64,000 nucleotides of DNA from an uncultured Candidatus Berkelbacteria bacterium (GTDB lineage: Bacteria; Patescibacteriota; UBA1384; UBA12157): assembly GCA_903877885.1 (NCBI GenBank), contig CAIRFN010000013.1, forward strand, positions 2,754 to 66,753, given 5' to 3'. Both the position numbers and the translations under genes were made by a program. This document shows positions 6,925-42,182 of the stretch, in pieces (positions within the stretch are counted from its first letter, which is position 1; the number at the start of each line of letters is the position of its first letter). Below the pieces are notes generated by a model. That model saw only the letters and a program-made list of their open reading frames with translations. It was not told where the DNA came from and searched no databases.

Positions 6925-7676
6925 AACCAAATTACTGACTTCGTAGGTTAGTAATTTGGTTAAACAAATAAATGCTTTTTAATTATTGCTAAATCTTTTT
7001 GATCATTAATTCGACTACTAACAAATTTTTGATATTGTTTTGGTTGAATATCCATCAGACTATTAAAATCGCAAAATGATATAACGTCTTTTCCTAGATA
7101 CTCATCATATGAAGAAAAGCTCCAATCCTCCGGCTCTTTAACCAGTCCGGCTGTTACTGGATTAAGATGTTGATATCTCGTCAAATGCAGTAATTGTTCG
7201 TCACTTTCAACTAAAACATTTTTAAATCTTCCTTCCCATAACGGACCTTTGCGACAATGTTTAGTATTAAAGTATCGAGTATAGCCATTAAGGATATCGG
7301 CAACATATTTTGAAACACCATTTTCTTTTAGTTGTTTTAAAACTAAATGGATATGAGTCGGCATAATACAATAAGCAATTATATGTACTAACTTTTCACG
7401 ATCTTTTGAAATTGTAAATAAGGCATTATCAAAACCAAATTGACCGACTAATCTTGATCTCATAAAAGCCGACAAGCTCAAATCATTTTTAATCTGATAA
7501 TATCTAATAAGGTCGATCATCCGCACATATTCTTCATCATTATTAAAAATTTTGTAACCAGCGATGCTTTTCGTGCAAATATGATAGACTTGATCATTAA
7601 CCAAAAAATCTTTTCTCATATTTGAATTATATCATTACTAAACCCAAATTACTAACCTACGAAGTTAGTAATTTGG
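6925..7676 (-). mobile_element. REPtron-like unit: RAYT (IS200-like Y1 transposase) gene flanked by inverted REP hairpins
   Basis: Hairpins aaccaaattactgac-ttcgtagg-ttagtaatttggtt (6925-6961) and cccaaattactaac-ctacgaag-ttagtaatttgg (7643-7676) are inverted copies flanking the transposase ORF. Confidence 0.65.
6960..7619 (-). CDS. REP-associated tyrosine transposase (IS200/IS605 TnpA-like, Y1 HUH family), copy 1
   Basis: HUH motif HIHLVL; catalytic-Tyr region LTRYQHLNP; paralogous to 21600-22271 and 41462-42133. Confidence 0.8.
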   Translation of the reverse strand: MRKDFLVNDQVYHICTKSIAGYKIFNNDEEYVRMIDLIRYYQIKNDLSLSAFMRSRLVGQFGFDNALFTISKDREKLVHIIAYCIMPTHIHLVLKQLKENGVSKYVADILNGYTRYFNTKHCRKGPLWEGRFKNVLVESDEQLLHLTRYQHLNPVTAGLVKEPEDWSFSSYDEYLGKDVISFCDFNSLMDIQPKQYQKFVSSRINDQKDLAIIKKHLFV

Positions 7677-7685
7677 TTAATTGGC

Positions 7686-7714
7686 TTGACAAAAGCGATC
7701 AAAATACTTATAGT
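7686..7714 (+). promoter_or_regulatory. sigma70-type promoter TTGACA-17-TATAGT for the 7744 gene
   Basis: Perfect -35 (7686-7691) and near-perfect -10 (7709-7714) with 17-nt spacer; AGGAGG RBS at 7732-7737. Confidence 0.55.
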
Positions 7715-7743
7715 CTATCTATTACTTCTCTAGGAGGTGTACC

Positions 7744-8283
7744 TTGAGAGAACGGCCAAAATTTCTATCCCAAGGTCTTTGGGATATTCTCGAACCGCAA
7801 TGTCGATTTCCTGATGAACACTTACTAAAGCTGAAAGATCATTTTTTGCAACATGGTCTCGGACATTTGATAGATAAAATTATCCCTTATTATTACATTA
7901 CCGCCGAATCTGACATCTTTGGCGGTAAACAATTGGTTTTTATTTGCCGCTGGAATTTTCGAGATTTGAATTTCGCTACAATGGAGGCAATGATTGATAA
8001 ACCAAATTGCCCAGATTACGAAAATCTGGCTTTGGAATTTCTGAATCAAAATAATTTTAACCCAAAGATGGAAATTACACCACCAGATGAGATTGTGTGT
8101 ATTGATGATTTTACCGATACTCAATGCCTTAAAGATCATTTACCGCAAAGTTTCTATTGTTTACCAAATGAGCTAGCGAATTTGGAATCAGAAGCCATTC
8201 GAAAGAAGGTTGATAAGATCAAATCTAAATTTAAAGAAGCCGTAAAAACAAGACCAAACGAACCATTTTCGCTAGATATTTAA
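7744..8283 (+). CDS. hypothetical protein (TTG start)
   Basis: ORF with strong upstream promoter and RBS; no recognisable domain. Confidence 0.5.
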   Translation: MRERPKFLSQGLWDILEPQCRFPDEHLLKLKDHFLQHGLGHLIDKIIPYYYITAESDIFGGKQLVFICRWNFRDLNFATMEAMIDKPNCPDYENLALEFLNQNNFNPKMEITPPDEIVCIDDFTDTQCLKDHLPQSFYCLPNELANLESEAIRKKVDKIKSKFKEAVKTRPNEPFSLDI

Positions 8284-8307
8284 TGGTTTGATCAATAATC
8301 CCTATCA

Positions 8308-8329
8308 CCCGCTAACCGCGGGTTTTTTA
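8308..8329 (+). terminator. rho-independent terminator (cccgctaaccgcggg + T6)
   Basis: GC hairpin followed by T-run; overlaps uvrA stop codon. Confidence 0.6.
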
Positions 8330-11137
8330 TTTCAAAACTTCGGCGAGAAATTGGCCAGTGTATGATTTTTCTATTTTAGCGATTTCTTCGGGAGTGCCGG
8401 CGGCAATTAATTTTCCACCATTGTCCCCGCCTTCGGGACCCAAATCGATTAAATAATCAGCAGTTTTTATAACATCTAAATTATGTTCAATTACCACGAC
8501 TGAATTTCCGGCATCAACCAAACGATGCAACACTTCCAACAATTTTTTAATATCTTCAAAATGTAAACCTGTTGTTGGTTCGTCCAAAATATACATAGTC
8601 CGACCAGTGCCGCGTCGCGCCAGTTCTGTCGCCAACTTCACCCGCTGGGCTTCGCCGCCAGACAAAGTCGTAGCCGCTTGGCCCATTTTAATATAGCCCA
8701 AACCAACGTCAACCATGGTTTGCAAAATGTCGGCAATTTTCGGAATATCGGTAAAAAATTCGTGTGCCTCTTCGATTGTCATATCTAAAACATCGGCAAT
8801 ATTTTTATTTTTATATTTAACCGCCAATGTTTCACGATTAAAACGTTTGCCAGCGCAAACTTCACACGGGATGTAAACATCGGGCAAAAAATGCATTTCG
8901 ATTTTAATAATGCCATCGCCATCACAATTATCGCAGCGGCCGCCGGCCACGTTAAAACTAAATCGTCCTGGCATGTAGCCACGAAGCTTGGCGTCTTTAG
9001 TTTGCGCAAAGAGTTCCCGAATATGCGTAAAAACGCCGGTGTAAGTCGCCGGATTTGACCGCGGCGTCCGACCAATCGGACTTTGATCAATATCAATCAC
9101 TTTATTTAAATGTTCGACTCCTTCGATTCGCGCGTGTTTGCCGGGACGCTCTAATGAGCCTTGCAATTTTCGAGATAAAGATTTAAATAAAATTTCATTA
9201 ACCAAACTGGATTTTCCCGAGCCGGAGACGCCGGTCACACAAGTCAAAACGCCAAGTGGAAAATGCACGGTTAAATTTTTCAAATTGTTTTCGGTCGCAC
9301 CGATAATCGTTAAAAATTTCCCTTTGATTTTACGGCGAGTTTTGGGAATGGCAATTTTTCGCACACCGCTCAAATATTGGCCAGTAATCGATTTTTCCAC
9401 AGCAATAATATCTTCAACCGAGCCTTGAGCCACAATTTCACCGCCCAAACGACCAGCGCCGGGACCAACATCAATAATTTGATCAGCCTCGCGAATCGTT
9501 TCTTCGTCATGTTCAACCACTAAAACGGAATTACCTAGATCGCGCAAATGTTTAATTGTTTCTAAAAGTTTTGAATTATCGCGAGCATGAAGTCCAATCG
9601 ATGGCTCGTCCAAAATATACAAAACTCCCACCAAGCCAGAACCGATTTGAGAGGCCAAACGGATGCGTTGGGCTTCGCCGCCGGCGAGTGTATAGGCGGT
9701 GCGGTCGAGCGTTAAATAGCCTAAACCAACGTTGACTAAAAAGTTTAAACGATTTTTAATTTCCGTCAAAATTTTGTCAGCAATTAATTTTTCTTTAGTT
9801 GTTAAATCAATCGTTGCAAAAAATTCATGCGCGTTTTTAACCGACATGGCAGTCACATCAGCGATATTTAAATTATTAATTTTAATTAATAAAACTTCAG
9901 ACTTTAAGCGGCGTCCATCGCAAGAAGGACATGCCGAAATGCTCATATATTTTTCAATTTCTTTACGCACATTTTCACTTTCCGATTGACGGTAGCGTCG
10001 TTCCAAAAGCGGAATGACGCCTTCAAATTTGACATGAAAAACATTAGCCCGGCCGTGCGTAAAATATTTTACGCGCAAAACTTCCGGATTTTTTGTGCCA
10101 TACAAAAGTTCGTTTAAATATTCCGGCGCTAAATTGGAAATTGGCGCCAGTTCCGAAAAATTATATTTTTCCAACGCGGCTTTTAAAATCGAGCCATAAT
10201 AATTATTGGATTTATAATTTAGTGGCATAATCGCGCCAGCAGCTACAGACAAATTTTTATCTGGCACGACTAAATTGACGTCGATTTCTTTTTTAGTTCC
10301 CAATCCCCCGCAAGTGGCACAGGCGCCAAACGGCGAGTTAAAACTAAAAATGCGCGGTTCAATTTCGCCAAAATCGGTTTCATGATCGGGACAAGCTAAT
10401 TTTTGATTTAATAATAATTCGTTATCGCCATATAAAATTAAAAGTAAACCGTCGGCCAATTTCAGCGCCGTTTCAATACTTTCGGTCATGCGACCAATAT
10501 TGTCTGCAGAAATTATTAATTCATCAACAATAATTTCGATTGTATGATTTTTGTAACGCGCCAAAACAACTTGCGAATCTAAGTTCACAATCTTACCATT
10601 CACCCGCGCTTTAGAAAAACCTTTTTTGTAAAGATCATTTAATAATTGATGATATTCCCCTTTCCGACCACGAACAATCGGCGCCATAATTTTAATCGAA
10701 ATTCCCTCGCCCAAATCCAAAACTTTTTCCACCATTTGTTCAACTGATAATTTTTGAATTGGTTTACCGCAAACCGGACAATGTGGCACGCCAATGCGCG
10801 CAAATAAAACCCGCAAATAATCGTAAATTTCTGTCACTGTACCAACGGTTGAACGTGGGTTATGCGAAGCGGCTTTTTGATCAATGGAAATGGCCGGAGA
10901 GAGTCCTTCGATCGAATCGACATTTGGTTTTTCCATTTGACCCAAAAATTGGCGAGCATAAGATGAAAGTGATTCCAAATAGCGGCGTTGACCTTCGGCG
11001 TAAATTGTATCAAACGCCAAAGTAGACTTACCGGAGCCCGATAAGCCAGTCAAAACCACTAATTTGTTGCGCGGAATCGTGAGATCAACGTTTTTCAAGT
11101 TGTGCTCACGAGCCCCGCGAATAATAATTTCATCCAT
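8327..11137 (-). CDS. uvrA: excinuclease ABC subunit A
   Basis: 936 aa; two ABC ATPase modules ([18 protein letters not shown]); zinc-finger Cys clusters; UvrA N-terminus. Confidence 0.95.
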
Positions 11138-11326
11138 GCAGATATTTCCTATTATATTCTGACTTTTTATTTTATCACATTTTTACAATAAAATCCATTA
11201 ATATAGTTAAATTTTCCCCATATGACTACCCTGGAAGTTACCTTCTGGTTTAATCTTGATTTTTTTCAACATTTCTGCTATTCTAACCTTATCCACGGAT
11301 GGAAATTCTATCTGGAGGCGAAACTT

Positions 11327-11551
11327 ATGACAGAACCTTTTTCTTGTTTTTTATGTGGTAGCGAAAAATTAGCAAATGGCGATTGTGCCAGCGTTAATTG
11401 TAGTTCAAATAAAAATAAATTTTATATCGGTGTTAAATCAACTGGAGGAAAAGATATCTTCTCTCCACCACTTGAGCACAATCCTTATATCAACATATTA
11501 GGCCCATATAAAACCAAAGAAAAAGCGAAGAAGATGTTGGATAAGCTATGA
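11327..11551 (+). CDS. small zinc-ribbon protein (hypothetical)
   Basis: CFLCG...CASVNC Cys4 motif; GGAGG RBS 8 nt upstream of ATG at 11327; 3' end overlaps the convergent uvrB stop. Confidence 0.4.
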   Translation: MTEPFSCFLCGSEKLANGDCASVNCSSNKNKFYIGVKSTGGKDIFSPPLEHNPYINILGPYKTKEKAKKMLDKL

Positions 11552-13543
11552 GATTTTAATTTTCTTTAGTTGATTAATTTCATCTCTAATTATCGCCGCC
11601 TGTTCGAACTGCAAGTTCTGGGCGGCATTTTTCATTTCTTTTTCTTTAGCTTTAATGATTTTCGGTAGGTCTGATAGATCCTTCACTTCGTTCAGGATGA
11701 CAGAAAGGTCGGTTTGCGCTGCTTTTTCTGTCAGTTCATGATCGATAATTGATTCGATATTTTTTTGAATTGTTTGTGGCGTAATATTGTGATCTTTATT
11801 ATATTGAGTTTGAATTTTGCGACGACGTTCAGTTTCATCAATCGCCCTTTTCATCGACCCGGTAATGTTGTCAGCATACAAAATCACTTTGCCGGAAACA
11901 TTTCGGGCCGCCCGACCGATAGTTTGAATTAGAGAAACATCAGACCGCAAAAAACCTTCTTTGTCCGCATCTAAAATGGCAACCAGTGTAACTTCCGGTA
12001 AATCCAAACCTTCGCGAAGGAGGTTTACGCCAACCAAACAATCGAACTCACCACGACGTAAATTTTCCAAAATTCCGACACGGTCAAGTGTTTGAATATC
12101 GGAATGTAAATATTCGGCTTTAACATCGGCTTCTTTTAAGTATTCCGATAATTGTTCAGCCATTTTTTTAGTAATAGTGGTAACCAAAATTCGTTCATGA
12201 TTTTTGGCCCGAACTTTAATTTCTTCGATCAAATCTTGAATTTGATTTTCCGCTGGCCGAATTTCTAATTCCGGATCAATCAAACCAGTTGGACGAATAA
12301 TTTGTTCAACAATATTGTTTTTGGATTTTTCATGTTCGTATTTACCGGGCGTGGCCGAGGTGAAAATGACTTGCGGAATACGGGTCTCAAATTCGTCAAA
12401 TTTAAGCGGTCGATTATCAAAGGCACTCGGAAGTCTAAATCCGTTTTCGACTAATGATTCTTTGCGCGCTCGGTCGCCTGCATACATACCACCGATTTGC
12501 GGCACAGTCACATGCGATTCATCAATCACCATCAAAAAATCTGGCTTACCATTCGTATCAACTGGAAAATATTCCAAAAGCGTATACGGCGCTTCGCCAG
12601 GAGCACGGTCAGTCATGTAGCGCGAATAGTTTTCTATTCCCGAACAATAACCGATTTCTTTCATCATTTCTAAATCAAAACGAGTGCGGCGTCTTAAACG
12701 CTCGGCTTCCAAAATTTTTCCATCTTTGGCAAATTCGGCCAAACGAATTTCTAAATCCTTTTCAATATTTTTAAGCGCGTCTTGCATTTTTGGATCTTCA
12801 ACCACAAAATGCTTGGATGCAAAAATGGTTGTTTCTTCCGGTGTGCCAATTTTTTTCATCGAAACAGCTTCAAATACAGCAATATTTTCCAAAATATCAT
12901 TGGTAAATTCCAATCGAAAAATAATATCTTGATCGACCGGCATAATTTCTATGGTCTGACCATGAACGCGAAACTTGCCGCGTTCGAGAATTTCACTGCG
13001 TGTAAAATACAAATCAATCAGTTGTTTAATAATCTCATTGCGATTATATTTTTGACCACGCTTTAAAAAAAGATAATTTGCGCGATAAGTTTTTGGATCG
13101 CCTAACCCGTAAATGCAAGAAACAGAACAGACAATAATCACGTCTTGGCGGGTCAAAAGTGCTTGAGTGGCGGCGTGGCGAAGTCGCTCAATTTCCTTGT
13201 TGATGTCGGCTTCCTTTTCAATATAGGTGTCGCTGGCTGCCATGTAAGCTTCTGGTTGATAATAATCATAGTAACTGACGAAATATTCAACCGCATTGTT
13301 TGGGAAAAAGGTGCGAAACTCGGAGCAAAGTTGGGCGGCCAAAGTTTTGTTGTGAGCAATTACCAAAGTTGGTTTTTGGATTTTTTCAATCACATTGGCA
13401 ATAGTGAAAGTTTTTCCCGATCCGGTCACGCCCAAAAGAGTCTGAAATTTTTCTCCAGACTTAATACCTTTGATCAACTTCTCAATTGCTTGAGGTTGGT
13501 CGCCAGCGGGCGCATATTTTGAATTGATTTTAAATTCCATATA
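11546..13543 (-). CDS. uvrB: excinuclease ABC subunit B
   Basis: GVTGSGKT Walker A, helicase motifs, C-terminal UVR domain; start set at MEFKINSKY (13543) with AAAGGA RBS, not the upstream in-frame ATG. Confidence 0.92.
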   Translation of the reverse strand, partial: YMEFKINSKYAPAGDQPQAIEKLIKGIKSGEKFQTLLGVTGSGKTFTIANVIEKIQKPTLVIAHNKTLAAQLCSEFRTFFPNNAVEYFVSYYDYYQPEAYMAASDTYIEKEADINKEIERLRHAATQALLTRQDVIIVCSVSCIYGLGDPKTYRANYLFLKRGQKYNRNEIIKQLIDLYFTRSEILERGKFRVHGQTIEIMPVDQDIIFRLEFTNDILENIAVFEAVSMKKIGTPEETTIFASKHFVVEDPKMQDALKNIEKDLEIRLAEFAKDGKILEAERLRRRTRFDLEMMKEIGYCSGIENYSRYMTDRAPGEAPYTLLEYFPVDTNGKPDFLMVIDESHVTVPQIGGMYAGDRARKESLVENGFRLPSAFDNRPLKFDEFETRIPQVIFTSATPGKYEHEKSKNNIVEQIIRPTGLIDPELEIRPAENQIQDLIEEIKVRAKNHERILVTTITKKMAEQLSEYLKEADVKAEYLHSDIQTLDRVGILENLRRGEFDCLVGVNLLREGLDLPEVTLVAILDADKEGFLRSDVSLIQTIGRAARNVSGKVILYADNITGSMKRAIDETERRRKIQTQYNKDHNITPQTIQKNIESIIDHELTEKAAQTDLSVILNEVKDLSDLPKIIKAKEKEMKNAAQNLQFEQAAIIRDEINQLKKIKIS
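11672..11702. repeat. MITE-family segment embedded in frame in uvrB (encodes SVILNEVKDLSD)
   Basis: tgatagatccttcacttcgttcaggatgacag shares 27 of 33 nt with the iscS-embedded copy at 51215-51243 and ends in the family TIR gatgaca. Confidence 0.55.
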
Positions 13544-13553
13544 TCCTTTGTTA

Positions 13554-13584
13554 TTCCGGTCAGGTTGGCAACCTAGAACCGGAA
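13554..13584. promoter_or_regulatory. nested palindrome upstream of uvrB (ttccggtc-AGGTTGgcCAACCT-ag-aaccggaa), candidate operator
   Basis: 7-bp outer and 6-bp inner perfect inverted repeats located 11-40 nt upstream of the uvrB start. Confidence 0.35.
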
Positions 13585-13631
13585 TCCAGTTCCCTGTTAT
13601 TCTATCACAAATCCCCAAATTTATCCACATG

Positions 13632-13700
13632 TTGACATCAAGAGAGAGAGAGTAAATTTAAGGTGGAAGGGATCACCTTTCTAAAATTAAATAAGAGGAG
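13632..13700 (+). promoter_or_regulatory. promoter/leader of paralog A: TTGACA, (AG)6 repeat, TAAATT, conserved leader hairpin AAGGTGgaagggatCACCTT, AGAGGAGG RBS
   Basis: About 85% identical to 29609-29688 except for (AG)n repeat number. Confidence 0.5.
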
Positions 13701-13707
13701 GCAAACC

Positions 13708-14580: not shown

Positions 14581-14657
14581 TTGAAATGATTTTATAGATT
14601 GCCACGCTTCCCGCCCGCCGGCGGATCGCTCGCAATGACAAAAAAATTATTTTTCTA

Positions 14658-14742
14658 ACCTGTCACAGCCCACTTCGGAAGTGGGCTATATGGTTAAAGT
14701 TTAGTCCGTTACCACCTGGGAGGTGGCAACATATGGTTAGAG
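14658..14742. repeat. REP doublet (agcccacttcggaagtgggct-atatggtta ; ccacctgggaggtgg-caacatatggtta)
   Basis: Two GC-rich hairpins each followed by ATATGGTTA; whole ~85-nt unit repeated at 30566-30651. Confidence 0.65.
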
Positions 14743-19512: not shown

Positions 19513-19590
19513 CAAGTTAGATATTAAAAAACGATTTACTCTATTTTAGTGAGTCGTTTTTTAGTATGATGAAAATAAAGAAGGATTAAT

Positions 19591-20670: not shown

Positions 20671-21551
20671 AGCAGGAATTAAAAATCAAGGATTTATATC
20701 GCGAGATAGTATCCGAACTAAAATCAAAGGAGATTAGTACTCCAGAACTCGATGCTCGAGTTATAATTTGCTATGCGCTGAAAATGACAGACGCGGATTT
20801 TTTTAAAACAGATAACGATCTAATTTCAAATTATCAGGCTGACAAGATTATAAAACTGGTTAGGGAGCGAGTAAAAAATATTCCCGTGGCCTATATTTTA
20901 GGTCAAAAAGAATTTTATGGCCTTAATTTTTATGTTAATAAAAATGTTTTAATCCCCCGCCCAGAGTCGGAATGGTTGGTTGAAGAAGCAGTAAAATATA
21001 TTAAAACCCAAAAAAGAAAAATCGCGATTTTGGATCTGGGAACCGGTAGCGGCAATATCATTATTTCGATTTACAAAAGTTTAATGATTGGCAATTGGCA
21101 ATTTGGCGTTAAGTTTCATGCTTCGGATATTAGTTCAAAAGCTTTATTTATAGCTAAAAAGAATGCGAAAAAATATAAGCTTGATAAAAAAATCAAATTA
21201 TTTCATTCCGATCTGTTTTCTAACTGGCGATTGCAGAAAAAATTTGATTTAATCGTGGCCAATTTGCCGTACGTACCGAAAAACAATGAACCGTTAACTG
21301 TTTACCGTTCACCGATCTCATTTGAGCCACAAAATGCCATTTTTGCATCAGATAACGGCGCGGAAATTATTAAAAAGTTCTTGGTTCAAGCCAAAAATTA
21401 TTTAAATAACAATGGTTTAATTTTAATCGAACTCGATCCGCGAAACGCGGCTGATCTTAAGGAATTTACTCAATCGAACTTCCCTAACACCAAAATCCAG
21501 CTCGAAAAAGATTTAGCTGGATTTGAACGCTACCTTATAATTAGAATCTAA
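20667..21551 (+). CDS. prmC: release factor glutamine N5-methyltransferase PrmC/HemK
   Basis: SAM-binding LDLGTGSG; substrate motif reads NLPY instead of the usual NPPY; 4-nt overlap with prfA. Confidence 0.85.
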
Positions 21552-22343
21552 CACTGTACGGCGACCTCGGAGGTAGGCGAACGGTGTTAGACAAATATTT
21601 TAACCCGAATAGTTATCTATCATCATATTCTTTATAACAGAGATTTGTTTCTGATAAGATTTACGATCATTAACAAATTTTCGATATTGTTCAGAAGTAA
21701 AATCAAATAAGCCGTCGAATTGACATAAATTAGCACTATCAATTTTCAAATATTCCAGATAGGAAGAATGGAGCCAATCCTCTGGCTTCTGAACTAAACC
21801 AGCCGAAGAAGCATTAAGATGAAAATATCGTGTTAAATGCAATAACTGATTATCTGTTGAAACTTCCACATCTTTAAATTTACTCTCCCATAGAGGCCCG
21901 GACCGATGATGCTTGGAATTGAAATATCTTGTATAACTATTTAAAACTCTGGACATGAACTTAGAAATTCCTTGGTCGGCGACTTGTTTCAATATTAAAT
22001 GAATGTGAGTTGGCATAATTGTATATGCGATAATTTCAACTAGAACTTGGCTGTTTAATTGAACATTCTGGATTATTTTTTGTTGCAAAAAGGGATTTAG
22101 ATCAGAAAATTTAGAATAACAATAATTGAAATCTATGTATCGATAAAGCTTTAATAGTTCCTTTATTCTTGAAAAATCTTGCGGATCATTAAAAATAGTA
22201 TACTTTGCAATACTACGACTAAAAACATGATAATAATGTCCATTTGCTAATGGATATTTTCGTATATTCATTTATTTAATCATACCATAAGATAATAAAA
22301 TTAACACTGTACGCCTACCTCGGAGGTCGTCGTATAGTGTTAG
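21550..22343 (-). mobile_element. REPtron-like unit 2: RAYT gene flanked by REP hairpins aacactgtacg...tcggagg...cgaacggtgtta
   Basis: Imperfect palindromes at 21550-21589 and 22301-22343 with TCGGAGG loops flank the ORF. Confidence 0.6.
21600..22271 (-). CDS. REP-associated tyrosine transposase (IS200-like Y1), copy 2
   Basis: HIHLIL HUH motif; LTRYFHLN Tyr motif; N-term MNIRKYPLANGHYYHVFSRS like copy 3. Confidence 0.8.
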   Translation of the reverse strand: MNIRKYPLANGHYYHVFSRSIAKYTIFNDPQDFSRIKELLKLYRYIDFNYCYSKFSDLNPFLQQKIIQNVQLNSQVLVEIIAYTIMPTHIHLILKQVADQGISKFMSRVLNSYTRYFNSKHHRSGPLWESKFKDVEVSTDNQLLHLTRYFHLNASSAGLVQKPEDWLHSSYLEYLKIDSANLCQFDGLFDFTSEQYRKFVNDRKSYQKQISVIKNMMIDNYSG

Positions 22344-22365
22344 CATAAATATATATAATTAAATT

Positions 22366-22428
22366 ACCAAAATCCAGCTCGAAAAAGATTTAGCTGGGCT
22401 TGAACGATATTTGATAATTAAGAACTAG
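22366..22428 (+). repeat. divergent duplicate of the last 63 nt of prmC (orphan 3' gene end)
   Basis: First 32 nt identical to 21489-21520, remainder ~65% identical; still encodes ...LEKDLAGLERYLIIKN* in frame. Confidence 0.6.
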
Positions 22429-30558: not shown

Positions 30559-30565
30559 AATCCCA

Positions 30566-30651
30566 AACCTGTCACGGCCCACTTCCAGGGTGGGATATAT
30601 GGTTAAAATTTACCAAGTTACCACCTTGGAGGTGGTAACATATGGTTAGAA
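30566..30651. repeat. REP doublet (cccacttccagggtggg-atatatggtta ; gttaccaccttggaggtggtaac-atatggtta)
   Basis: Homologous to 14658-14742; the second hairpin is identical to the one inside mnmA. Confidence 0.65.
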
Positions 30652-34103: not shown

Positions 34104-34183
34104 TGGCTTCACCCCCTGTTTTTCGCTCCAATAAGATTGTAACTTAAAATTTAAAAAAATCAAACCTTTTCTGGTTTGATTTT

Positions 34184-35092
34184 TTAGACCATGGCACGGA
34201 GTTTTTTAATTCGCTCGACAATCGGCGGATGAGTGTCAAACATTCCCGCAAACCAACTTTTGCCGCCGCCATCTTCTTTATCTTTAAACGGACTGGCAAT
34301 ATACAAATGGGCCGTGGCTTTGTTAGCCACTTCCAGTGGTTCTTTATCATTAGAAATTTTTTCCAAAGCTGAAGCTAAACCTTCAGGATAACGGGTTAAA
34401 AGCGCACCAGTGGCATCAGCCAAATATTCTCGTTTCCTGGAAATCGATAACTGAATTAGAGTAGCGATAATTGGCGACAAAATCACCAAAACTAAACCAA
34501 TAATCATTAAAATCGCTTGAATTTGGCCGCCACCTTCAGAATCATTACTGCGACGTCCACCAAACCAAGTCCAACGTAAAAAGAAATCAGCCATCAAGGA
34601 AACAACGCCGACTAAAACCACAATCACCATCATTAGACGAATATCGTAATTACCGATATGACTCATTTCGTGCGCAATCACGCCTTGAAGTTCAACATTA
34701 TTGAGTTTCTGTAGTAATCCGGATGTCACCGCAATCGAGGCGTGTTGAGGATCGCGTCCGGTGGCAAAAGCGTTTGGCGCCGAATCGTTAATAACGTAAA
34801 TTTTTGGTTTGGGAATGCCTGCCGTAATCGCCAAATTTTCCACCGTTCGATGTAAACTTAAATATGGTTCGGCGCGTGGTACTTCTTTGGCAGCCGAAAT
34901 AGCCAAAGTGATCGAATCAGAATAATAATAGGAAACTAAAGTTTGAACCACAGCGATGATTAAGGCAATAATCAAAATTGCTGGATTATTAAAATACCAG
35001 CTTAAAAAATAACCTAGCCCGCTGACAAACAGCAAGAAAATCGTCATAATGACAACGGTTTTAATTTTATTAGAATCTATCTCTTTGTACAT
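34184..35092 (-). CDS. htpX: HtpX-family M48 zinc metalloprotease
   Basis: HEMSHI zinc motif, TM helices. Confidence 0.88.
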   Translation of the reverse strand: MYKEIDSNKIKTVVIMTIFLLFVSGLGYFLSWYFNNPAILIIALIIAVVQTLVSYYYSDSITLAISAAKEVPRAEPYLSLHRTVENLAITAGIPKPKIYVINDSAPNAFATGRDPQHASIAVTSGLLQKLNNVELQGVIAHEMSHIGNYDIRLMMVIVVLVGVVSLMADFFLRWTWFGGRRSNDSEGGGQIQAILMIIGLVLVILSPIIATLIQLSISRKREYLADATGALLTRYPEGLASALEKISNDKEPLEVANKATAHLYIASPFKDKEDGGGKSWFAGMFDTHPPIVERIKKLRAMV

Positions 35093-35106: not shown

Positions 35107-35391
35107 CTAAACTCGTGTTTTCTCTAATTTACTAATTCTGATTTCATGATTATCAACTCGATTTAACTCTGATCGTTGCAAGGTTTCGATTCGATTGGTA
35201 GTTAATTGCAAATCATGAACATCTTCTTTTAATTCATTAACATCATTTTTTAATTCTCTAACATCTTCTGCTAGCTCATCCTGTTTTTCCAAAATCCGGT
35301 CTAAAACCGGCATCATCACGGTTGTCATTACGTCGACAACCGTTTCTTTGACGATCTCTTTAACTCTAATTTCATCTTGAGTATCTAACAT
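35107..35391 (-). CDS. hypothetical coiled-coil protein
   Basis: 94 aa, Glu/Leu-rich heptad-like. Confidence 0.4.
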   Translation of the reverse strand: MLDTQDEIRVKEIVKETVVDVMTTVMMPVLDRILEKQDELAEDVRELKNDVNELKEDVHDLQLTTNRIETLQRSELNRVDNHEIRISKLEKTRV

Positions 35392-35409
35392 TTTTTCTCC
35401 TTTATAAAT

Positions 35410-36024
35410 CTATTTCGTAAACTGAAAAGTCTGGGCGATTTGAGTGTAAACATCTGCCTCTGGCACGTCGGTTGGTACAAAAACAATTTGAACAACTTGT
35501 TTATCTTTAGCTAAATAAATATTTTCATCACCACAACGCGGTCCGTCACAAGAAAAAATAATATTCGATTTCAGGGCATCTTGACCGTTAATTTTGACTA
35601 CTTCGTGTTTATAACGAATATCTTCGGCATTTTTTTCCGCGGCAGTGGCAAAAGCGTCAAGCGCTAAATTTTTCGGATTATCCAAGACTAAAACCATTAC
35701 ACCGGAAGCATTTTGGCATAACATATTGGCCGCATGAGTCGTATTTTTATTAATACAAAGACTGCTGTCGGAATTAGCCGCGTTATTTTCGACAATATAG
35801 TCTTGGGGAATTTTGATTGAAAAATTATATTTAGAATTAGTATATGGTTTCCAACTGGCAGTAGAAATTGGCGATGATGTCGTCGATGGCGACGGCGTTG
35901 GAATCGGATTTGGCCGATTTGGCGTTAGTATTTTCCAACTGAAATAGCCGACAACAATTATTATAATGATAATTGGCCCAAGCCAAAGCCATTTTGACGG
36001 TTTTTGTGGTGGAAATTGATACAT
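35410..36024 (-). CDS. membrane-anchored exported protein, paralog family B (copy 1)
   Basis: N-terminal TM helix, Pro/Thr-rich linker, domain starting W.xY.N...F(S)xKxP and ending FQFTK; paralogs at 40759-41367 and 58326-58913. Confidence 0.5.
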   Translation of the reverse strand: MYQFPPQKPSKWLWLGPIIIIIIVVGYFSWKILTPNRPNPIPTPSPSTTSSPISTASWKPYTNSKYNFSIKIPQDYIVENNAANSDSSLCINKNTTHAANMLCQNASGVMVLVLDNPKNLALDAFATAAEKNAEDIRYKHEVVKINGQDALKSNIIFSCDGPRCGDENIYLAKDKQVVQIVFVPTDVPEADVYTQIAQTFQFTK

Positions 36025-36034
36025 TTTAATCCTT

Positions 36035-36586
36035 TTAGAATTTTACTTCCGGAGTGGCTTTTTCACCTTCAGCGGCTTCGAAAAGTTCAAACGGTTTGGC
36101 GGCAATCATACCAGCAGCAATAGAATTTGGAAAAGTTTGGATTTTAATATTGAAATCGCGAACATTGCCATTGTAGAAACGGCGGCTGGCTTCGATTTTA
36201 TTTTCTGTATCAGTTAATTCATCTTGGAGTTTTTGAAAATTTTCAGAAGCTTTTAATTCTGGATAAGCTTCGGCCACGGCGAAAACCGATTTTAAAGCGC
36301 CAGTTAAAACATTTTCTTTATCTGAAATATCAGCCGGAGATTTAGCGGAAATCGCATCAGCGCGAGCCTCGGTTACTTTTTCAAAAACACTAGATTCGTG
36401 TGTAGCATAACCCTTAACAGTTTCGACTAAATTAGGGATTAAATCATGGCGACGTTTTAATTGCACATCGATATCCGACCAAGCCTCTTGGGTTCGATTT
36501 CGAAGAACGACGATCCCATTAAAGACACCGACAAACCAAAGTACTAACAAGACAATGATCCCAAGGATGGTCCAGGTAACAATCAT
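36035..36586 (-). CDS. lemA: LemA family protein
   Basis: N-terminal TM helix plus LemA-like helical segment (VLRNRTQEAWSDIDVQLKRRHDLIPNLVETVKGYA); sits beside htpX as is common. Confidence 0.85.
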   Translation of the reverse strand: MIVTWTILGIIVLLVLWFVGVFNGIVVLRNRTQEAWSDIDVQLKRRHDLIPNLVETVKGYATHESSVFEKVTEARADAISAKSPADISDKENVLTGALKSVFAVAEAYPELKASENFQKLQDELTDTENKIEASRRFYNGNVRDFNIKIQTFPNSIAAGMIAAKPFELFEAAEGEKATPEVKF

Positions 36587-36622
36587 TTTAACTCCTTTAG
36601 ATAAATTAATATTTTTATTTTT

Positions 36623-37573
36623 TTACAAACCTGAAGTGGCGCTAGCCGAAGCACTGGCATTTGTTCCTGAAGTCGAAGTATTCGAGCTACTACTCGACAT
36701 AATACTCGGCGTTGGGCCAGTTAAAGGAATAGTTGATGGTGTTACTATTGGAGTGAAAATTGGCGATGGATTACTGGTATTTGGTGTTTCAGCTGAAGAT
36801 TCAGTTACAGTATAAATAAAGTAATTTCCGATAATTACACCGGCAGGATCAGTTCGATCTTCCAATATTGAGGTTAATTGGAAAGTCTTACCGTCTGATT
36901 TATAACTGTAATAATTATTTGGTGACAAAGGATCGAGCGGTAAACTAGAAACGTAAGTTGGAACCAAAACCTTCAGAGCCGTATCTGGATCAGATGTTTT
37001 AGTTGAAGTCGTTGCCACTGGATATGACTGTTTGTCATTATAATATCTTTGCAGAGCGGTTTTTAAATTTGCCAAATCAGTTTTGCGTTGAGCGTCGTTT
37101 TGATTCACCACTGGTTCGGGTGTAATCACGACCGATGGAGTTGGCGTCGGTTTTTTAATCCCCAATATTGCTCCCAGATCAATTAGATGGAACCAAGAAG
37201 CGGCAAAAATTGCGCCGCCAATGACTAAAACTGCTAAAACAAGATAAAGCACAACGTTGCTTTTTTTGCCAGCTGGTTCCATCATTACTGGCGAAGAACT
37301 GGATCCAGCCGGCGCGCTAGATGGACCGGTTAGATCAGGGATTGGCGAGCTACCAAAAGAAGAGGTCGAGGTAACTGTTGGTGTAGCTGGCGGAACAGTT
37401 GGTGGAGTTTGAGCCGGCGTCCAGCTGGAGGTTGGCGGTATTGATGATGTTGATGAGCCAAAACTACTGGCTGGAGTTGGTGCTGGAAATGGTTGAGCTG
37501 GTGGCATCGTCGATGGTGCTGGCGCCATCGGATTTGTTGGTTGTTGGTTACTACCAAATGGTTGTTGATTCAT
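36623..37573 (-). CDS. Pro/Ser/Thr-rich membrane protein with C-terminal pseudopilin (GspG-like) domain
   Basis: ~120-aa low-complexity P/S/T region, one TM helix, then DAQRKTDLANLKTALQRYYNDKQSYP pilin-fold signature. Confidence 0.5.
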   Translation of the reverse strand: MNQQPFGSNQQPTNPMAPAPSTMPPAQPFPAPTPASSFGSSTSSIPPTSSWTPAQTPPTVPPATPTVTSTSSFGSSPIPDLTGPSSAPAGSSSSPVMMEPAGKKSNVVLYLVLAVLVIGGAIFAASWFHLIDLGAILGIKKPTPTPSVVITPEPVVNQNDAQRKTDLANLKTALQRYYNDKQSYPVATTSTKTSDPDTALKVLVPTYVSSLPLDPLSPNNYYSYKSDGKTFQLTSILEDRTDPAGVIIGNYFIYTVTESSAETPNTSNPSPIFTPIVTPSTIPLTGPTPSIMSSSSSNTSTSGTNASASASATSGL

Positions 37574-37624
37574 GTTATCCCCTCCAAAATATTCATCGTT
37601 TTTTTACTATACATTTTTATTTTA

Positions 37625-38050
37625 CTACTTTTCTTTTTCAACTACAATTTTAATTTGGGCATTTAAATTTTGACCAAAGCTAATTGAAAGAGGATACTCC
37701 CCGATTTTTTTAAATTGCTCCTTAATCATTTTTGCATCCACCCCAATTTTTTCCGCCAATTCTTTTGCGCCTAAGGCACCATACAAGTGACCATCTTTAT
37801 CGGCCTTACGCGCAAAGACAAAAGTTTGGCCGTCTAGTTCTTTAATTCTTTCTTCCAAGGCTTGACGATGTTTTTTAGTTTCAGCCTGATGAATTTTTTG
37901 TTCAGCCATAATCTCGTGAGTTTGATTATCACTCGGCAAAGTGGCTAGGTGTTTGGCAAATAAAAAATTCCTGGCATAGCCATCGTTTACTTCTTTAATT
38001 TCCCCTTTTTTTCCTAAATTTTTAACATCTTGGATTAAAAATACTTTCAT
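37625..38050 (-). CDS. rplI: 50S ribosomal protein L9
   Basis: [22 protein letters not shown]-terminus. Confidence 0.9.
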
Positions 38051-39267
38051 TGATTTGCTAACTCCATAGCTTTAGTTAGTTGCGGATCGCGATTATTTTT
38101 AGTATCATCTTCAGTTAAACTTACTTTTACATCTGGGTCAATCCCCTTGTGACTAATCTGACGATCTTTTGGCGTCAGCCATTCAGCAATCGTTAATTTT
38201 AGACTAGCACCTGAACCCAAATCTAACATTTCTTGGACTGAACCTTTACCAAAAGAAATAGCTCCAACCAAAGTTGCCCGATTATTGTCTTGCAACGCGC
38301 CAGCGACAATTTCCGCCGCCGAAGCCGAACCTTCGTCGATTAGAACAACCAACTTGGTTTTGGCGAGAATCGGTTTATCAACTGTTTTTTCGATTTGAAC
38401 TTTGCCATCTTTATCTTTTTCTTTAACTACAACTGTTCCTGGATCACTAAACATTCCAACCATATCGACTGCTGATTGTAAATAGCCACCCGGATTATGA
38501 CGTAGATCCAAGACAATTGCTTTAGGATTTTTGGCTGCCAATTCAGTTGTCGCCCGCTGCATCAGATTGGTCGTGTCATCGCCAAATTGGCTCACTTTAA
38601 TATAGCCAATGTTATTATCCTTCATACTCCACTCAACAGATTTGACGGTAATTTTATCGCGACGAATTTCAATTACTTGCGGCTCGGTCCAACCGTCACG
38701 ACCGACGGTTAGTTTTACCGTTGTGCCCGCTTTACCCCGAATATTGTTTATGGCATCATTTAAAGTCAAATTTTCCACAGCCACATCATCAATTTTTAAA
38801 ATTTGATCATTCGGTTTTAATCCGGCCTTTTCCGCCGGCGAGCCAGCTAGTGGTGTCACCACAATTAACTTTCCATCTTTAACCGAAAGTTCGGCGCCAA
38901 TGCCTTCTATTTCACCAGATAAATCATCGCGAAAAGTTTTGTTATCACTTGGCTCCATAAAAACCGAATATGGGTCGCCAAGTCCAGACATCATCCCGGA
39001 AATCGCACCATAAACCATTTTTTGTGGATCAAGTTTGTTGATCGATTTTTCAGCCACCAAATTCCAAGCCTTCCAAAACATCGAAAAATCAACGGTTTTT
39101 GGCTTAAAAAGTTCCTGATTAACCACTTTTGGCACAAAGTTTTTTTCAAAAACTAGATTCTTATGACCAACCACGAATCCGGCGAAATAAAAAATGAGAG
39201 CAAAAAGAATTAAAGCAATGACTTTACTAAGTTTTGAAAGTTTCGATAATTTTTTCAGTTTATTCAA
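38047..39267 (-). CDS. ctpA: carboxy-terminal processing protease (S41) with PDZ domain
   Basis: PDZ, S41 catalytic Ser region (GSASAAE) and LDLRHNPGG; start set at TTG 39267 with AGGAGAG RBS because the upstream ORF extension covers a repeat region. Confidence 0.8.
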
Positions 39268-39282
39268 GACTCTCCTTTGTGA

Positions 39283-39345
39283 AAATGGATTATGAATTAT
39301 GAAGCATGAAGAATGGTTTTTCCATGATCCATAATCCATGATCCA
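39283..39345. repeat. AT-rich tandem/palindromic repeats (attatgaattatgaa; ccatgatccataat x2)
   Basis: 14-nt tandem direct repeat and related GAATTATGAA units also seen at 43955-43985. Confidence 0.45.
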
Positions 39346-39350
39346 TAATT

Positions 39351-40541
39351 CTATTTAATAATTCCTCCACCCAGAACCTCTTCTTTGTAATAGAAGACGA
39401 CTGATTGACCAGGCGTAATTGCTCGTTGCGGTTTCTTAAATATTACTCTAACTTCTTCATCATTAATATGTGTAATCTGACAAGGTTCGATTGGATGACC
39501 ATGACGGATTCTGGCACTTATATTATTTGTTTTTGGTTTATTAATCCAGTTTAAATTTGTGGCCACCAGTTCTTTTTGGAATAAATCTTCATCTTGACCG
39601 ACAATTAATTCATTGGTTTTACTCTTCAATTTTATCACATAATAAGCGTTCGGACCACCCAAACCCAAACCTTCGCGCTGACCGATTGTGTAATTTATTA
39701 AACCGTCATGCGTGCCGATTTGGGTTTTGGTTTTGATGTCAATAATCGGACCAGGCTCGGTTAGATTTTGAGCGTAGCGGCGTAAAAAGCCGCCAACATT
39801 TCTGTCCGGAATAAAACAAATGCCTTGGGACTCACGGCGCGTCGCGGTCGGAAGTTGCATCTCGAGAGCCAGTTGGCGAATTTGCGGTTTAGTATAATCG
39901 CCACAAGGAAATAAAACGTGGGCTAATTTTTCTTGTGTTAGCGTCCACAAAAAATAAGTTTGATCTTTAACTTTGTCTTTCGGTTGCAAAAAATGATATC
40001 CGGTTTTGTCTTTTTTGATTCTGGCGTAGTGACCAGTCGCTAAATATTCGGCATCTAACTCAAAGGCTTTTTGCATCAAAAGTTCGCCTTTAATATCACG
40101 ATTACAAATCACGCACGGATTTGGCGTGCGACCCGATTCATATTCTTCAATATAATAATCCACCACTAATTTTTTAAATTCTTTTTCAAAATTAACAACA
40201 TAAAAAGGAATGCCCAGCTTTTTGGCCACCGCGCGAGCGGCAGTCGAGGCGTCCACCGAGCAACAGATATTTTCGCGCAAACCAGATGTTACCACCTTGG
40301 AGGTGGTAACTTGAGGTTCAGCCCAAAGCTTCACGGAGTCTGAATCTTTGTCGCCGGAATCGCTCCAAAGCTTCATAAAAATTCCCACGACGTCAAAGCC
40401 CTGTTTTTTTAGTAGCGCGGCGGCAACCGATGAGTCCACTCCGCCAGACATTGCGCACACTACTCGTGGTTTCTTTCTGTCATTGCGAGCCGCCGCAGCG
40501 GCGTGGCAATCTTTCTTTAAATTGTCATTTTCTTTTTTCAT
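39351..40541 (-). CDS. mnmA: tRNA-specific 2-thiouridylase MnmA, carrying in-frame repeat insertions
   Basis: SGGVDSS PP-loop, catalytic Cys residues, C-terminal barrel; extra ~25 aa after FMKLW and a GC-rich N-terminal extension. Confidence 0.9.
   Translation of the reverse strand: MKKENDNLKKDCHAAAAARNDRKKPRVVCAMSGGVDSSVAAALLKKQGFDVVGIFMKLWSDSGDKDSDSVKLWAEPQVTTSKVVTSGLRENICCSVDASTAARAVAKKLGIPFYVVNFEKEFKKLVVDYYIEEYESGRTPNPCVICNRDIKGELLMQKAFELDAEYLATGHYARIKKDKTGYHFLQPKDKVKDQTYFLWTLTQEKLAHVLFPCGDYTKPQIRQLALEMQLPTATRRESQGICFIPDRNVGGFLRRYAQNLTEPGPIIDIKTKTQIGTHDGLINYTIGQREGLGLGGPNAYYVIKLKSKTNELIVGQDEDLFQKELVATNLNWINKPKTNNISARIRHGHPIEPCQITHINDEEVRVIFKKPQRAITPGQSVVFYYKEEVLGGGIIK
40283..40375. repeat. 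REP hairpin (gttaccaccttggaggtggtaac + ttgaggttcagcc) inside the mnmA reading frame, with 11-nt direct repeats ccaaagcttca
   Basis: 23-nt hairpin identical to 30617-30639; encodes AEPQVTTSKVVTSG, absent from E. coli MnmA. Confidence 0.7.
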
Positions 40542-40586
40542 CAGGTCTATTTTACCATATTTTTCAAAATTTTACCACCTTTACCA

Positions 40587-40620
40587 CCGCCACTTCGGAA
40601 GTGGCGGTGAGGTTTAATTG
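40587..40620. repeat. REP hairpin ccgccacttcggaagtggcgg + tgaggtttaattg
   Basis: Same TTCGGAAG loop and GAGGTTT tail as other REPs. Confidence 0.6.
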
Positions 40621-40693
40621 AATAGTATTTAAATTAATTCTACTACCTAAAAAACCGCCTGGACTAACCAAAGCGGTTTTTTGATATTTTCTT

Positions 40694-40765
40694 TGTCATT
40701 CCGGACTTGATCCGAAATCTAGTTTATTTAGCCCGCCCCGTGATGAACGAAGTGAATTTTACGGG
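40694..40765. repeat. MITE-family copy (tgtcattccgga ... gatgaacgaagtgaa ... acgggg)
   Basis: Carries the TGTCATTC TIR and the gaacgaagtgaa core shared with the uvrB/iscS-embedded copies; overlaps the stop of the 40759 gene. Confidence 0.5.
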
Positions 40766-41367
40766 GTGAATCGGAAACTAGCAAGAATCGCTTTTTGAGT
40801 CTCGGATAAATTAGCTTTATTTTCAGCTGATGCGTCGAAATTAAAGAAGTTGCCACTGTTTTTTACAATAACCTCGTACTGAGTTTTAATTCCCGTAGCC
40901 ATATCTTCGTAGGCCGGCAGATTAGCAAACGTTATTTTCTTCGGCTCAAAAATATTGCCAGTTTCAGCTAACTTCGTAACCAAACCATCTAAATCTAAAC
41001 TCGAAAGCTGAATTTTTTTACCCGTCGCACTATAAGTAAATTCATGATTAATATAAATTGTTAGATCACTAGCACTATCCTGATTATTAATCATAATTTG
41101 ACCCGAGCTATCATTAATATCAACGATATAATTTTTTGGATATTTAAAACTAAATCCCAAATCCTTATTTTCATACGTTTTCCAGTCAGCGGTGGAAATA
41201 ACTGATGATGTTGGAACAGGCGGTTTTGGTGTAACGATTGGTTTAGTCATTAACCAATATCGCCAGCCGAAAAAGAAAGCGACGATGACGATGACGCCGA
41301 TTAAAATTCCGAGTAACCATTTTGTTGATGTGTGCATTTCTCTCCTTTGATTTGTTATAATTATCAT
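40759..41367 (-). CDS. membrane-anchored exported protein, paralog family B (copy 2)
   Basis: Same architecture as 35410-36024; ends FRFTP. Confidence 0.5.
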   Translation of the reverse strand: MIIITNQRREMHTSTKWLLGILIGVIVIVAFFFGWRYWLMTKPIVTPKPPVPTSSVISTADWKTYENKDLGFSFKYPKNYIVDINDSSGQIMINNQDSASDLTIYINHEFTYSATGKKIQLSSLDLDGLVTKLAETGNIFEPKKITFANLPAYEDMATGIKTQYEVIVKNSGNFFNFDASAENKANLSETQKAILASFRFTP

Positions 41368-41423
41368 CTCATCATTTTAAACAAAAAGAAATATCACACG
41401 CTAGCGCCACAAAGAAATTTTCT

Positions 41424-42182
41424 AACCATATAGCGTACACCCTGGAAGTGTACATTGAGGTTTAGCCGGAGTAATTATCAATCAAAATATTTTTGATTAG
41501 CGCCAAATCGCGTTGATATGATTTTTGGTCAAGAACAAACTTCTTGTATCTTTTTGGCGACATATCAATGATTTCTTTAAATAAGCAAATCGGATTATTC
41601 ACTTCCTCGCAAAATTCTTTTAGAGAAGAAAAAGGCCAATCAAACGGATTATCAACCAAACCAGCTGAACTCGGATTTAGGTGCACATAGCGTGTTGAGT
41701 GTAATAATTGATTATCATTTTCAATTAAAACATTCCTGAAATGTCCTTCCCATAATGGACCGTTTCGATGATGTTTTAAGTTAAAATATCTAGTATAACT
41801 ATTTAAAATTTTACCGATATATTTTGAAATTCCATCATCTTTTTTCTGCTTTAAAATAAGATGAAAATGCGTCGGCATAATACAATAAGCCACAATTTCG
41901 ACCAAAACATCGTTATTCTTTTTTAGGCTATTTAAAATAGCCGTTTGAGCCATCATCTCCAGTTCTTTAAACCTTGAGTACTTATGATTAAATTCCGCAA
42001 AACGGTACATATCCAAGAGTTCTAAAATCCTATAATAATCATCGTCATCATTAAAAATCTGATATTTAGCGATACTCCGACTAAAGATATGATAATATTG
42101 GTCGGTTGCTAAAGGCGTTTTTCTAATATTCATAAGTCGATTATACCACAATGTACACCCCGGGGGTGTACATTGGTTTAAC
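41424..42182 (-). mobile_element. REPtron-like unit 3: RAYT gene flanked by inverted REPs (aaccatatagc-gtacaccctggaagtgtac-attgaggttt / aatgtacaccccgggggtgtacatt-ggtttaac)
   Basis: GTACAC/GTGTAC stems in inverted orientation on both sides of the ORF. Confidence 0.65.
41462..42133 (-). CDS. REP-associated tyrosine transposase (IS200-like Y1), copy 3
   Basis: HFHLIL HUH motif, STRYVHLNP Tyr motif; start set at MNIRKTPLA (42133) because the upstream ORF extension is encoded by the REP hairpin. Confidence 0.8.
   Translation of the reverse strand: MNIRKTPLATDQYYHIFSRSIAKYQIFNDDDDYYRILELLDMYRFAEFNHKYSRFKELEMMAQTAILNSLKKNNDVLVEIVAYCIMPTHFHLILKQKKDDGISKYIGKILNSYTRYFNLKHHRNGPLWEGHFRNVLIENDNQLLHSTRYVHLNPSSAGLVDNPFDWPFSSLKEFCEEVNNPICLFKEIIDMSPKRYKKFVLDQKSYQRDLALIKNILIDNYSG

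Follow-up and report, generated by a model that had tools for sequence, protein, structure and literature searches.

RAYT-like transposase genes between paired hairpins, and related hairpins dispersed around them, in a Candidatus Berkelbacteria contig

Genes for REP-associated tyrosine transposases (RAYTs) and the repetitive extragenic palindromes (REPs) that accompany them form units, termed REPtrons, whose function and layout have been described previously (PMC6006769, PMC5581495, PMC8266576). Here we analyse a stretch of 64,000 nucleotides (hereafter the window; positions 2,754 to 66,753 of the forward strand of contig CAIRFN010000013.1) from an uncultured Candidatus Berkelbacteria bacterium, which probably, at odds that we would place near four in five, contains three REPtrons, each consisting of a RAYT gene of the Y1 HUH type between two hairpins of its own, together with dispersed hairpins of at least seven stem families. 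The RAYT/REP reading is supported by several independent lines of evidence, and the fold and catalytic motifs of the proteins, the association of gene and hairpin across phyla, the dispersal of cognate hairpins and three insertion or duplication footprints could all be observed directly.

Transposase genes, fold and homologues

The three open reading frames (ORFs) lie on the minus strand at 6960..7619 (219 aa), 21600..22271 (223 aa) and 41462..42133 (223 aa counted from the ATG, with 17 aa more from a TTG at 42184), and all are intact. They align end to end at 46-57% identity, which bears out the initial annotation in treating them as paralogues; the HUH motifs (HIHLVL, HIHLIL and HFHLIL) and the catalytic-Tyr motif (TRY.HLN) that it had picked out occupy invariant alignment columns. 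In copy 1, for example, the HUH is H-I-H and the catalytic Tyr lies within TRYQHLNP. Residues H89, H91, Y149 and N153 are invariant in an alignment of 102 homologues, in which the residue preceding the HuH is an invariant Thr (T-H-u-H) instead of Asn or Asp. The Tyr motifs of the window copies (RYQHLNP, RYFHLNA and RYVHLNP) leave readable the Y-x3-N-P signature of class-2 TnpA-Y1 proteins, as distinct from the Y-x3-Q of IS200 transposases (PMC6006769).

All three ORFs score above the gathering threshold of the Pfam Y1_Tnp profile (27.6-33.7 bits vs 23), the profile check proposed when they were annotated. Among NCBIfam models the RAYT equivalog NF047646 is by far the top match, scoring 68.1, 60.6 and 70.9 bits where the cut-off is 80, while the IS200 model NF033573 matches copy 2 at 17.5 bits (cut-off 55) and gives no match to the other two copies. 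A profile built from 24 family members and searched against the PDB places 4ER8, the Escherichia coli TnpA_REP, first (E 4e-7), with ISDra2 TnpA at E 2e-3. Likewise, an AlphaFold (AF2) model computed from 102 sequences (predicted local distance difference test score, pLDDT, 90.7) returns 4ER8 at rank 1 in a Foldseek search of the PDB (E 1.7e-7), with the transposases of ISDra2 and IS608 next. By profile and by model alike, E. coli TnpA_REP, a REP-associated tyrosine transposase, is the closest solved relative of the window proteins. The AF2 model also has a two-helix C-terminal tail that is extra to 4ER8 and that, searched against Pfam at E 10, yields only noise and no domain.

The family to which these proteins belong is large. 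A word-index search returned 960 protein matches, mostly unnamed metagenome proteins with some labelled Berkelbacteria or Woykebacteria, and a full profile search gave at least 826 clusters at 50% identity (E <= 1e-30). From species-representative genomes we took 79 homologue loci, whose hosts are Berkelbacteria, other Patescibacteria, Omnitrophota, WOR-3, Elusimicrobia, Endomicrobiales, Thermodesulfobacterium and Planctomycetes bins, and in this clade several copies per genome are common. A tblastn search of the PLSDB plasmids produced 13 weak partial matches and no full-length one, which indicates that these are not transposases carried by the plasmids of cultured bacteria. Apart from one KEGG annotation of an archaeal gene, REP, REPIN or RAYT was not found linked with phyla of the Candidate Phyla Radiation in the literature covered, which was incomplete, and novelty is accordingly unproven.

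Hairpins beside the genes and elsewhere

To the 79 fetched loci were added two contigs from the same samples as the window and the three window genes, and in this set of 84 loci about 59 carry related hairpins on both flanks. The median gap is 23 nt between the upstream hairpin and the start codon and 4 nt between the stop and the downstream hairpin, which often overlaps the stop. When centred on the loop, 120 flank hairpins align without gaps. Their triloop is mostly CGT/ACG or CGG/CCG, and their apex is near-invariant (C-A-C-C-T / A-G-G-T-G, that is, CACCT-NGN-AGGTG), with the A-T and C-G pairs present in 115 of the 120. The middle of the stem covaries freely: all 14 pairs are changed on both sides, with a score of 0.67 against 0.12-0.20 when the pairing is slid, although the hairpins were selected by a palindrome finder and the pairing is therefore partly there by construction. 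Among 137 flank hairpins, the left foot reads AACC in 65% and the right foot GGTT in 48%, compared with 6-7% at random positions. The GT[AG]G foot by which canonical REPs are defined (PMC6006769) occurs in 0 of these 137, and GTAG was seen only within the apex of the subset of hairpins with a CGT triloop. The triloop also shows a polarity bias, being CGT or CGG upstream and ACG or CCG downstream (Fisher p 1e-4), and at about 19 loci the flanks are clearly direct.

A covariance model, R1, was trained on the 120 hairpins with sequences from the window and the same-sample contigs excluded, and was run on the window with filters off. It identifies 13 sites at E < 0.02, among them 12 of the 13 hairpin positions reported in the initial annotation and the second hairpin of the doublet at 14655; the degenerate elements at 41422 and 30566 are scored weakly or missed. 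Since a model trained outside the window recovers the hairpins within it, the three families flanking the genes are branches of one superfamily tied to this protein family. Strong palindromes at 19521-19567, 34147-34192 and 58182-58230 are flanked by A- or T-rich runs and resemble bidirectional terminators without the conserved apex; two of these generic palindromes (34147 and 58182) are also matched weakly by R1, and none of the three is counted as REP-like.

Palindromic hairpins are present on both sides of all three genes, at the places first proposed for them. Copy 1 is flanked at its 3' end by hairpin A1 (6921..6965, + strand; R1 E 1e-3; fold z -7.8; apex CTT-CGT-AGG), whose TAACC foot provides the stop codon of the gene, and at its 5' end by A2 (7638..7682, - strand; R1 E 3e-7), which is inverted relative to A1. 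The 3' flank of copy 2 is B1 (21547..21591, + strand; R1 E 0.011; z -7.3), an imperfect palindrome with two internal mismatches that overlaps the stop codon of prmC, and its 5' flank is B2 (22300..22344, + strand; R1 E 0.0075), in which the stem asymmetry is inverted relative to B1. Copy 3 has at its 3' end the degenerate C1, with a 6-bp stem (41422..41466, + strand; R1 E 2; z -0.7), and at its 5' end C2 (42140..42184, + strand; R1 E 1.4e-9), of the same polarity as C1. Against shuffles, the single-stranded DNA folds of the flanks reach z -4 to -7.8, apart from that of the downstream flank of copy 3 (z -0.7). Pairwise comparison confirms that the stem sequences of the three copies differ. The inverted orientation that had been claimed for all three pairs holds for copy 1 (alignment score 32 inverted vs 23 direct) and copy 2 (30 vs 26) and is not demonstrable for copy 3, whose flanks score slightly higher as direct repeats (15 inverted vs 18 direct); all four hairpins of the copy-3 family have one polarity, on the + strand.

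In total, pairwise comparison within the window sorts 15 hairpin elements into seven stem families, A to G. Families A and B comprise the two flanks of copies 1 and 2, respectively, and no solo copy of either lies within the 64 kb. Family C comprises the two flanks of copy 3 and two solos, C3 (51998..52042, + strand; R1 E 1e-10), between divergent genes, and C4 (58939..58983, + strand; R1 E 0.011), between convergent genes. Families D and E form a two-hairpin unit, seen as D1+E1 (86 nt, 14655..14741, + strand, between convergent genes) and as D2+E2 (30563..30650, + strand), and E has in addition a solo within mnmA (40277..40321, no strand assigned; R1 E 6.5e-5). The remaining elements are F1 (40575..40619, + strand; R1 E 4e-7) and G1 (47898..47942, - strand; R1 E 6e-5; apex CACCT-ACG-AGGTG). 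The dispersed sites thus number two for family C and seven for families D to G, and these counts per family are lower bounds, coming from 64 kb of the genome. The families that flank the genes had been credited with seven solo or doublet sites, an assignment that stands for 52008-52040 and 58941-58985 (family C) and fails for the other five: 14658-14742 and 30566-30651 are the copies of the D+E unit, and 40288-40324, 40587-40620 and 47900-47940 belong to E, F and G, none of them a family of a window gene. The ends that recur among the hairpins, noted earlier as ATATGGTTA, GGTTTAA and GAGGTTT, correspond to the 3' foot (GGTT) of the AACC...GGTT frame found throughout the superfamily.

The window holds about three times as many hairpins as expected from Markov simulations (29 vs ~9), and about ten times as many of higher score (13 vs ~1.3). 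The hairpin elements sum to 667 nt, in a window with ~6.2 kb of intergenic DNA. Ten of the 12 hairpins of decidable polarity score higher with R1 on the + strand, and over the whole window the GC skew is negative and nearly all genes lie on the - strand; the strand preference of the hairpins, taken from small numbers, may reflect an orientation bias relative to replication. Two further regions at gene ends, 39285-39346 and 43926-43975, are AT-rich and consist of short repeated words (ATGAA/TCCAT; AATGCAGA/TCTGAAT) that make up long imperfect palindromes.

Repetition extends beyond the window. Extra cognate hairpins lie in nearby intergenic DNA at several homologue loci, with four within 7 kb at L018 and one or two at each of L058, L031 and L033. 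For the 19-mer GTACACCTACGAGGTGTAC, 114 metagenome contigs give 135 occurrences, of which 24 lie at most 120 nt from a homologue, 49 are solo (>=900 nt on each side) and 62 are undecidable. Two more paralogues, P0066 and P0086, were found on other contigs from the same ENA samples as the window: P0066 is flanked by ...GCCCAC...GTGGGC... hairpins that resemble window family D, and the flank hairpins of P0086 have a core one base off that of F1. The five paralogues share 46-64% identity, the closest pair 64%, and the population carries at least five diverged gene-hairpin pairs. From these matches, the window would seem to contain solo hairpins whose genes lie elsewhere. The window and loci L004 and L084 are probably from one genome, judging solely from shared samples and matching hairpins. 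Three RAYTs in 64 kb, with two paralogues in the same samples, agree with the earlier remark on their high density when set against published means, which for most RAYT classes are 1.2-1.9 copies per genome (PMC6006769 Table 1; PMC5581495). Among the fetched homologue loci there is no cognate gene for family E or family G, which leaves both as orphans, and the exact family-E core has 0 matches in the metagenome collection.

Other arrangements were observed among the homologue loci. At L125 (2994-3859) a pair of hairpins lies on each side of the RAYT gene, 62 nt apart and of the same polarity, and at L026 (2691-3550) the pairs are 45 nt apart and of opposite polarity; hence REPtrons with doublet flanks exist in this protein family. 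At L012 the stems of the two flanks differ (GTACAC upstream at 9940-9984, ATCCAAC downstream at 10667-10711), as if two hairpin families had met at one gene.

Insertion and duplication footprints, and the age of the copies

One footprint, of a hairpin inside a gene, is found in mnmA (39351-40541, - strand), the product of which aligns with solved MnmA structures as two blocks separated by an additional stretch. This stretch of 17-19 residues (KLWAEPQVTTSKVVTSG) lies in a loop, is unique in comparison with the nearest orthologues (72-77% identical) and opens with a repeat of the upstream KLW(S/A)(D/E) motif. It is encoded, at least in part, by the family-E hairpin, in frame from AACC foot to GGTT foot (within 40272-40349), and the 23-nt cores of this hairpin (40288-40310) and of the family-E hairpin at 30617-30639 are identical. 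An MnmA homologue from another metagenome, P0128, has a different insertion at the same position, which duplicates MKLWAE (MKLWAERSDDTASGSMKLWAEK; alignment columns 85-100) and could mark a separate event of insertion or excision there.

A further footprint is the D+E unit, present twice with 84% identity, the homology having sharp boundaries and running exactly from AACC to GGTTAGA. The unit consists of two different hairpins of the same polarity and in this respect resembles a REPIN doublet, but is direct and not inverted.

Finally, a 62-nt direct repeat of 85% identity encloses the whole hairpin-RAYT2-hairpin cassette. prmC has one copy (21489..21550, + strand) as its functional 3' end, and the other (22366..22427, + strand), beyond the far RAYT2 hairpin, is a non-coding relic of the same 3' end. 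The repeat resembles the scar of an insertion that duplicated a long target, a kind of duplication that Y1 transposition is not known to produce.

The gene copies appear to differ in age. Copy 1 stands in the order uvrB-uvrA-RAYT-uvrC, which is the same in L019, and copy 3 has neighbouring genes in common with homologues in L009, L028 and L032, of which L028 and L032 also have the GTACAC stem. No homologue adjoins prmC in the 79 loci, leaving copy 2 without a syntenic counterpart. Given this difference in synteny, copies 1 and 3 seem long established, and copy 2 seems to have arrived later. Old paralogues with 46-64% identity, two of them in kept neighbourhoods, are as expected of domesticated RAYTs and not of insertion sequences. 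RAYT homologues were also observed beside uvr genes in more than one position, namely between uvrA and uvrC (window 5681-13630 and L019) and just upstream of uvrB (L055, L060, L065 and L069).

Alternative explanations, known systems and significance

Several observations weigh against the RAYT/REP reading. None of the window proteins reaches the NF047646 cut-off of 80 bits (61-71 bits), and the flank hairpins are without the GT[AG]G foot that guides canonical TnpA_REP. The flanks of copy 3 are probably direct and not demonstrably inverted, as at the ~19 other direct loci. The term 'repetitive' is unproven for families A and B, which were seen only at their genes. Recognition of a particular stem by each paralogue is at most suggested, as protein similarity predicts stem similarity significantly but weakly (Mantel r 0.17); because the correlation is weak, we claim no specificity code.

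The genes could instead belong to autonomous IS200-like insertion sequences, with the hairpins as left and right ends and the whole hairpin-gene-hairpin cassette mobile, an explanation that we regard as unlikely. It would account for the duplicated 3' end of prmC, which brackets the RAYT2 cassette exactly, and for the finding that 0 of 79 loci have a homologue beside prmC, so that copy 2 looks like an arrival; hairpins on the same strand, as at IS200/IS605 ends, are present at ~19 loci and at copy 3, and several copies per genome are common in the clade. A target duplication, however, is unexpected from IS200/IS605 transposition, which is not known to produce any. Moreover, near-identical copies are absent, the paralogues being 46-64% identical, copies 1 and 3 are in kept synteny, and solo hairpins outnumber gene-adjacent ones. 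No tnpB-like gene adjoins the window RAYTs, whose neighbours are uvrC, prmC, a pilin-like gene and other host or housekeeping genes. The protein features point the same way, with a score of 17.5 bits against a cut-off of 55 for the NCBIfam IS200 model and a Tyr motif of the form Y-x3-N-P, not the Y-x3-Q of IS200 (PMC6006769).

Two other explanations appear less probable still. One, in which the hairpins serve ordinary gene expression as terminators, RNA stabilisers or operators and lie near RAYTs by coincidence, is hard to reconcile with an architecture that brackets homologues in many phyla, or with the metagenome copies of one hairpin type, 24 of 73 classifiable ones abutting a homologue. 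Most hairpins are indeed intergenic, several lie between convergent genes, and their fixed spacing to the RAYT start and stop would suit regulation, possibly beside mobility; yet others are found upstream of genes or where two genes diverge, and mnmA contains one. Terminators as the main explanation were considered and rejected, 0 hairpin elements having a T-run after the stem. The stems lack a following T-run on either strand, and the hairpin types recur in the window, in relatives and in metagenomes, unlike the non-recurring ordinary terminators that would have spoken against the initial annotation. No Rfam match was found for the hairpins: scans of the window with Rfam (gathering thresholds) and for tRNAs gave 0 matches, indicating that the hairpins are neither a known RNA family nor tRNA-derived. 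It is equally improbable that the system is a relic, with proteins domesticated for some other task on single-stranded DNA and hairpins left as immobile fossils. Such a relic would be consistent with the few copies per family in the window, with the degenerate copies C1 and D2, and with the absence of hairpin polymorphism among the strain variants L002, L003, L085 and L086 over the 6.8 kb and 21.7 kb compared (99.95-100% identity), but all three ORFs are intact with invariant catalytic residues, the two 23-nt family-E cores are identical, and the mnmA insertion is absent from the closest orthologues.

Under the RAYT/REP reading, the DNA would become single-stranded during replication or transcription, allowing the 35-45-nt palindromes to fold into a long stem with a triloop, to which the RAYT protein would bind. 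The Tyr of RY.HLNP would then cut near the AACC/GGTT foot, with the two His of T-H-u-H holding the metal, and the freed end would be joined to another single-stranded site. In this way hairpin singlets and doublets could spread to intergenic DNA and occasionally to a tolerant loop of a gene, while the RAYT gene would mostly stay in place and be inherited vertically. Three elements of this scheme are predicted: action of the enzyme on single-stranded DNA, the place where it cuts, and the restriction of each paralogue to its own stem family.

Comparison with E. coli TnpA_REP (YafM, 4ER8; RAYT subclass 2.2 of Quentin et al. 2018, Group 2 of Bertels et al. 2017) reveals a common Y1 HUH fold, for which it is the top match in both sequence and structure, the Y-x3-N-P motif and the W..SS after the catalytic helix. 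Likewise, the E. coli REPtron has its gene between cognate palindromes that are also dispersed, with diverged paralogues at low copy number. The window proteins differ in being ~55 aa longer, in their two-helix C-terminal tail, in having T-H-u-H where E. coli has [DN]-H-u-H, and in sharing 15% identity in structural alignment; the hairpins differ from E. coli REPs in lacking the GTAG foot guide and in having long, almost perfect stems closed by a triloop.

By the motif table of PMC6006769, and not by the hidden Markov models of its authors, the window proteins appear closest to TnpA-Y1 subclass 2.1 (Bertels Group 1; 'TIRYT' of Di Nocera et al. 2013), which has Y[IV]HLNP, W[EQ], the SS tail motif and a median length of 238 aa (PMC6006769 Table 1), as well as a wide taxonomic spread and often more than one copy per genome. 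Subclass 2.1, however, is reported without REPs and with GGGGWSAS terminal inverted repeats, none of which occurs within ~200 nt of any of the three window genes; its HuH is N-H-u-H, and it has a DnaA_C or helix-turn-helix-like C-terminal domain where no Pfam domain is detectable here. Subclass 2.4 RAYTs of Cyanobacteria and Bacteroidetes, with their 'double-foot' REPs (PMC6006769), are similar in pairing a 5' tetranucleotide with its 3' reverse complement and in having known in-frame REP insertions in genes, but their foot is GT[AG]G...C[TC]AC instead of AACC...GGTT and their protein motifs are YIxNNP and WQ. The IS200/IS605 TnpA proteins of IS608 and ISDra2, the second-tier structure matches, have in common the HUH/Tyr chemistry and the recognition of folded single-stranded hairpins; they differ in their Y-x3-Q motif, length of ~130-150 aa, multiple identical copies, frequent tnpB and end hairpins that are both on one strand.

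The system works like RAYT/REP and is not a canonical member: the NF047646 cut-off and the GTAG guide were both tested and neither was found to apply, and it is therefore filed as a variant. More tentatively, and with rather less than even confidence, we suggest that these proteins may form an undescribed RAYT subclass (T-H-u-H, ~220 aa, two-helix tail, at least 826 clusters; Patescibacteria, Omnitrophota, WOR-3, Elusimicrobia and Thermodesulfobacteria), whose REPs would be recognised by the apex CACCT-NGN-AGGTG and AACC/GGTT feet, shared across these phyla, and not by GTAG. Genomes of ~1 Mb would then house several orthogonal gene-hairpin pairs, told apart solely by the central part of the stem, and in these genomes hairpins would occupy about a tenth of the intergenic DNA and would still be moving, with a whole REPtron occasionally relocating.

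RAYT/REP systems have been characterised almost entirely in Proteobacteria, where recognition hinges on the GTAG foot guide. The same partnership would be present here in ultra-small, streamlined genomes under another hairpin grammar, composed of a conserved apex, a variable middle and AACC/GGTT feet. In practical terms, the proteins are annotated merely as 'transposase', and REP finders based on GTAG miss the hairpins. Sets of co-resident pairs would offer a direct handle on how TnpA_REP tells its own REP from others, a question that has been posed for three pairs only (PMC8266576). The RAYT/REP reading would also mean that non-coding, self-propagating DNA persists under extreme genome reduction.

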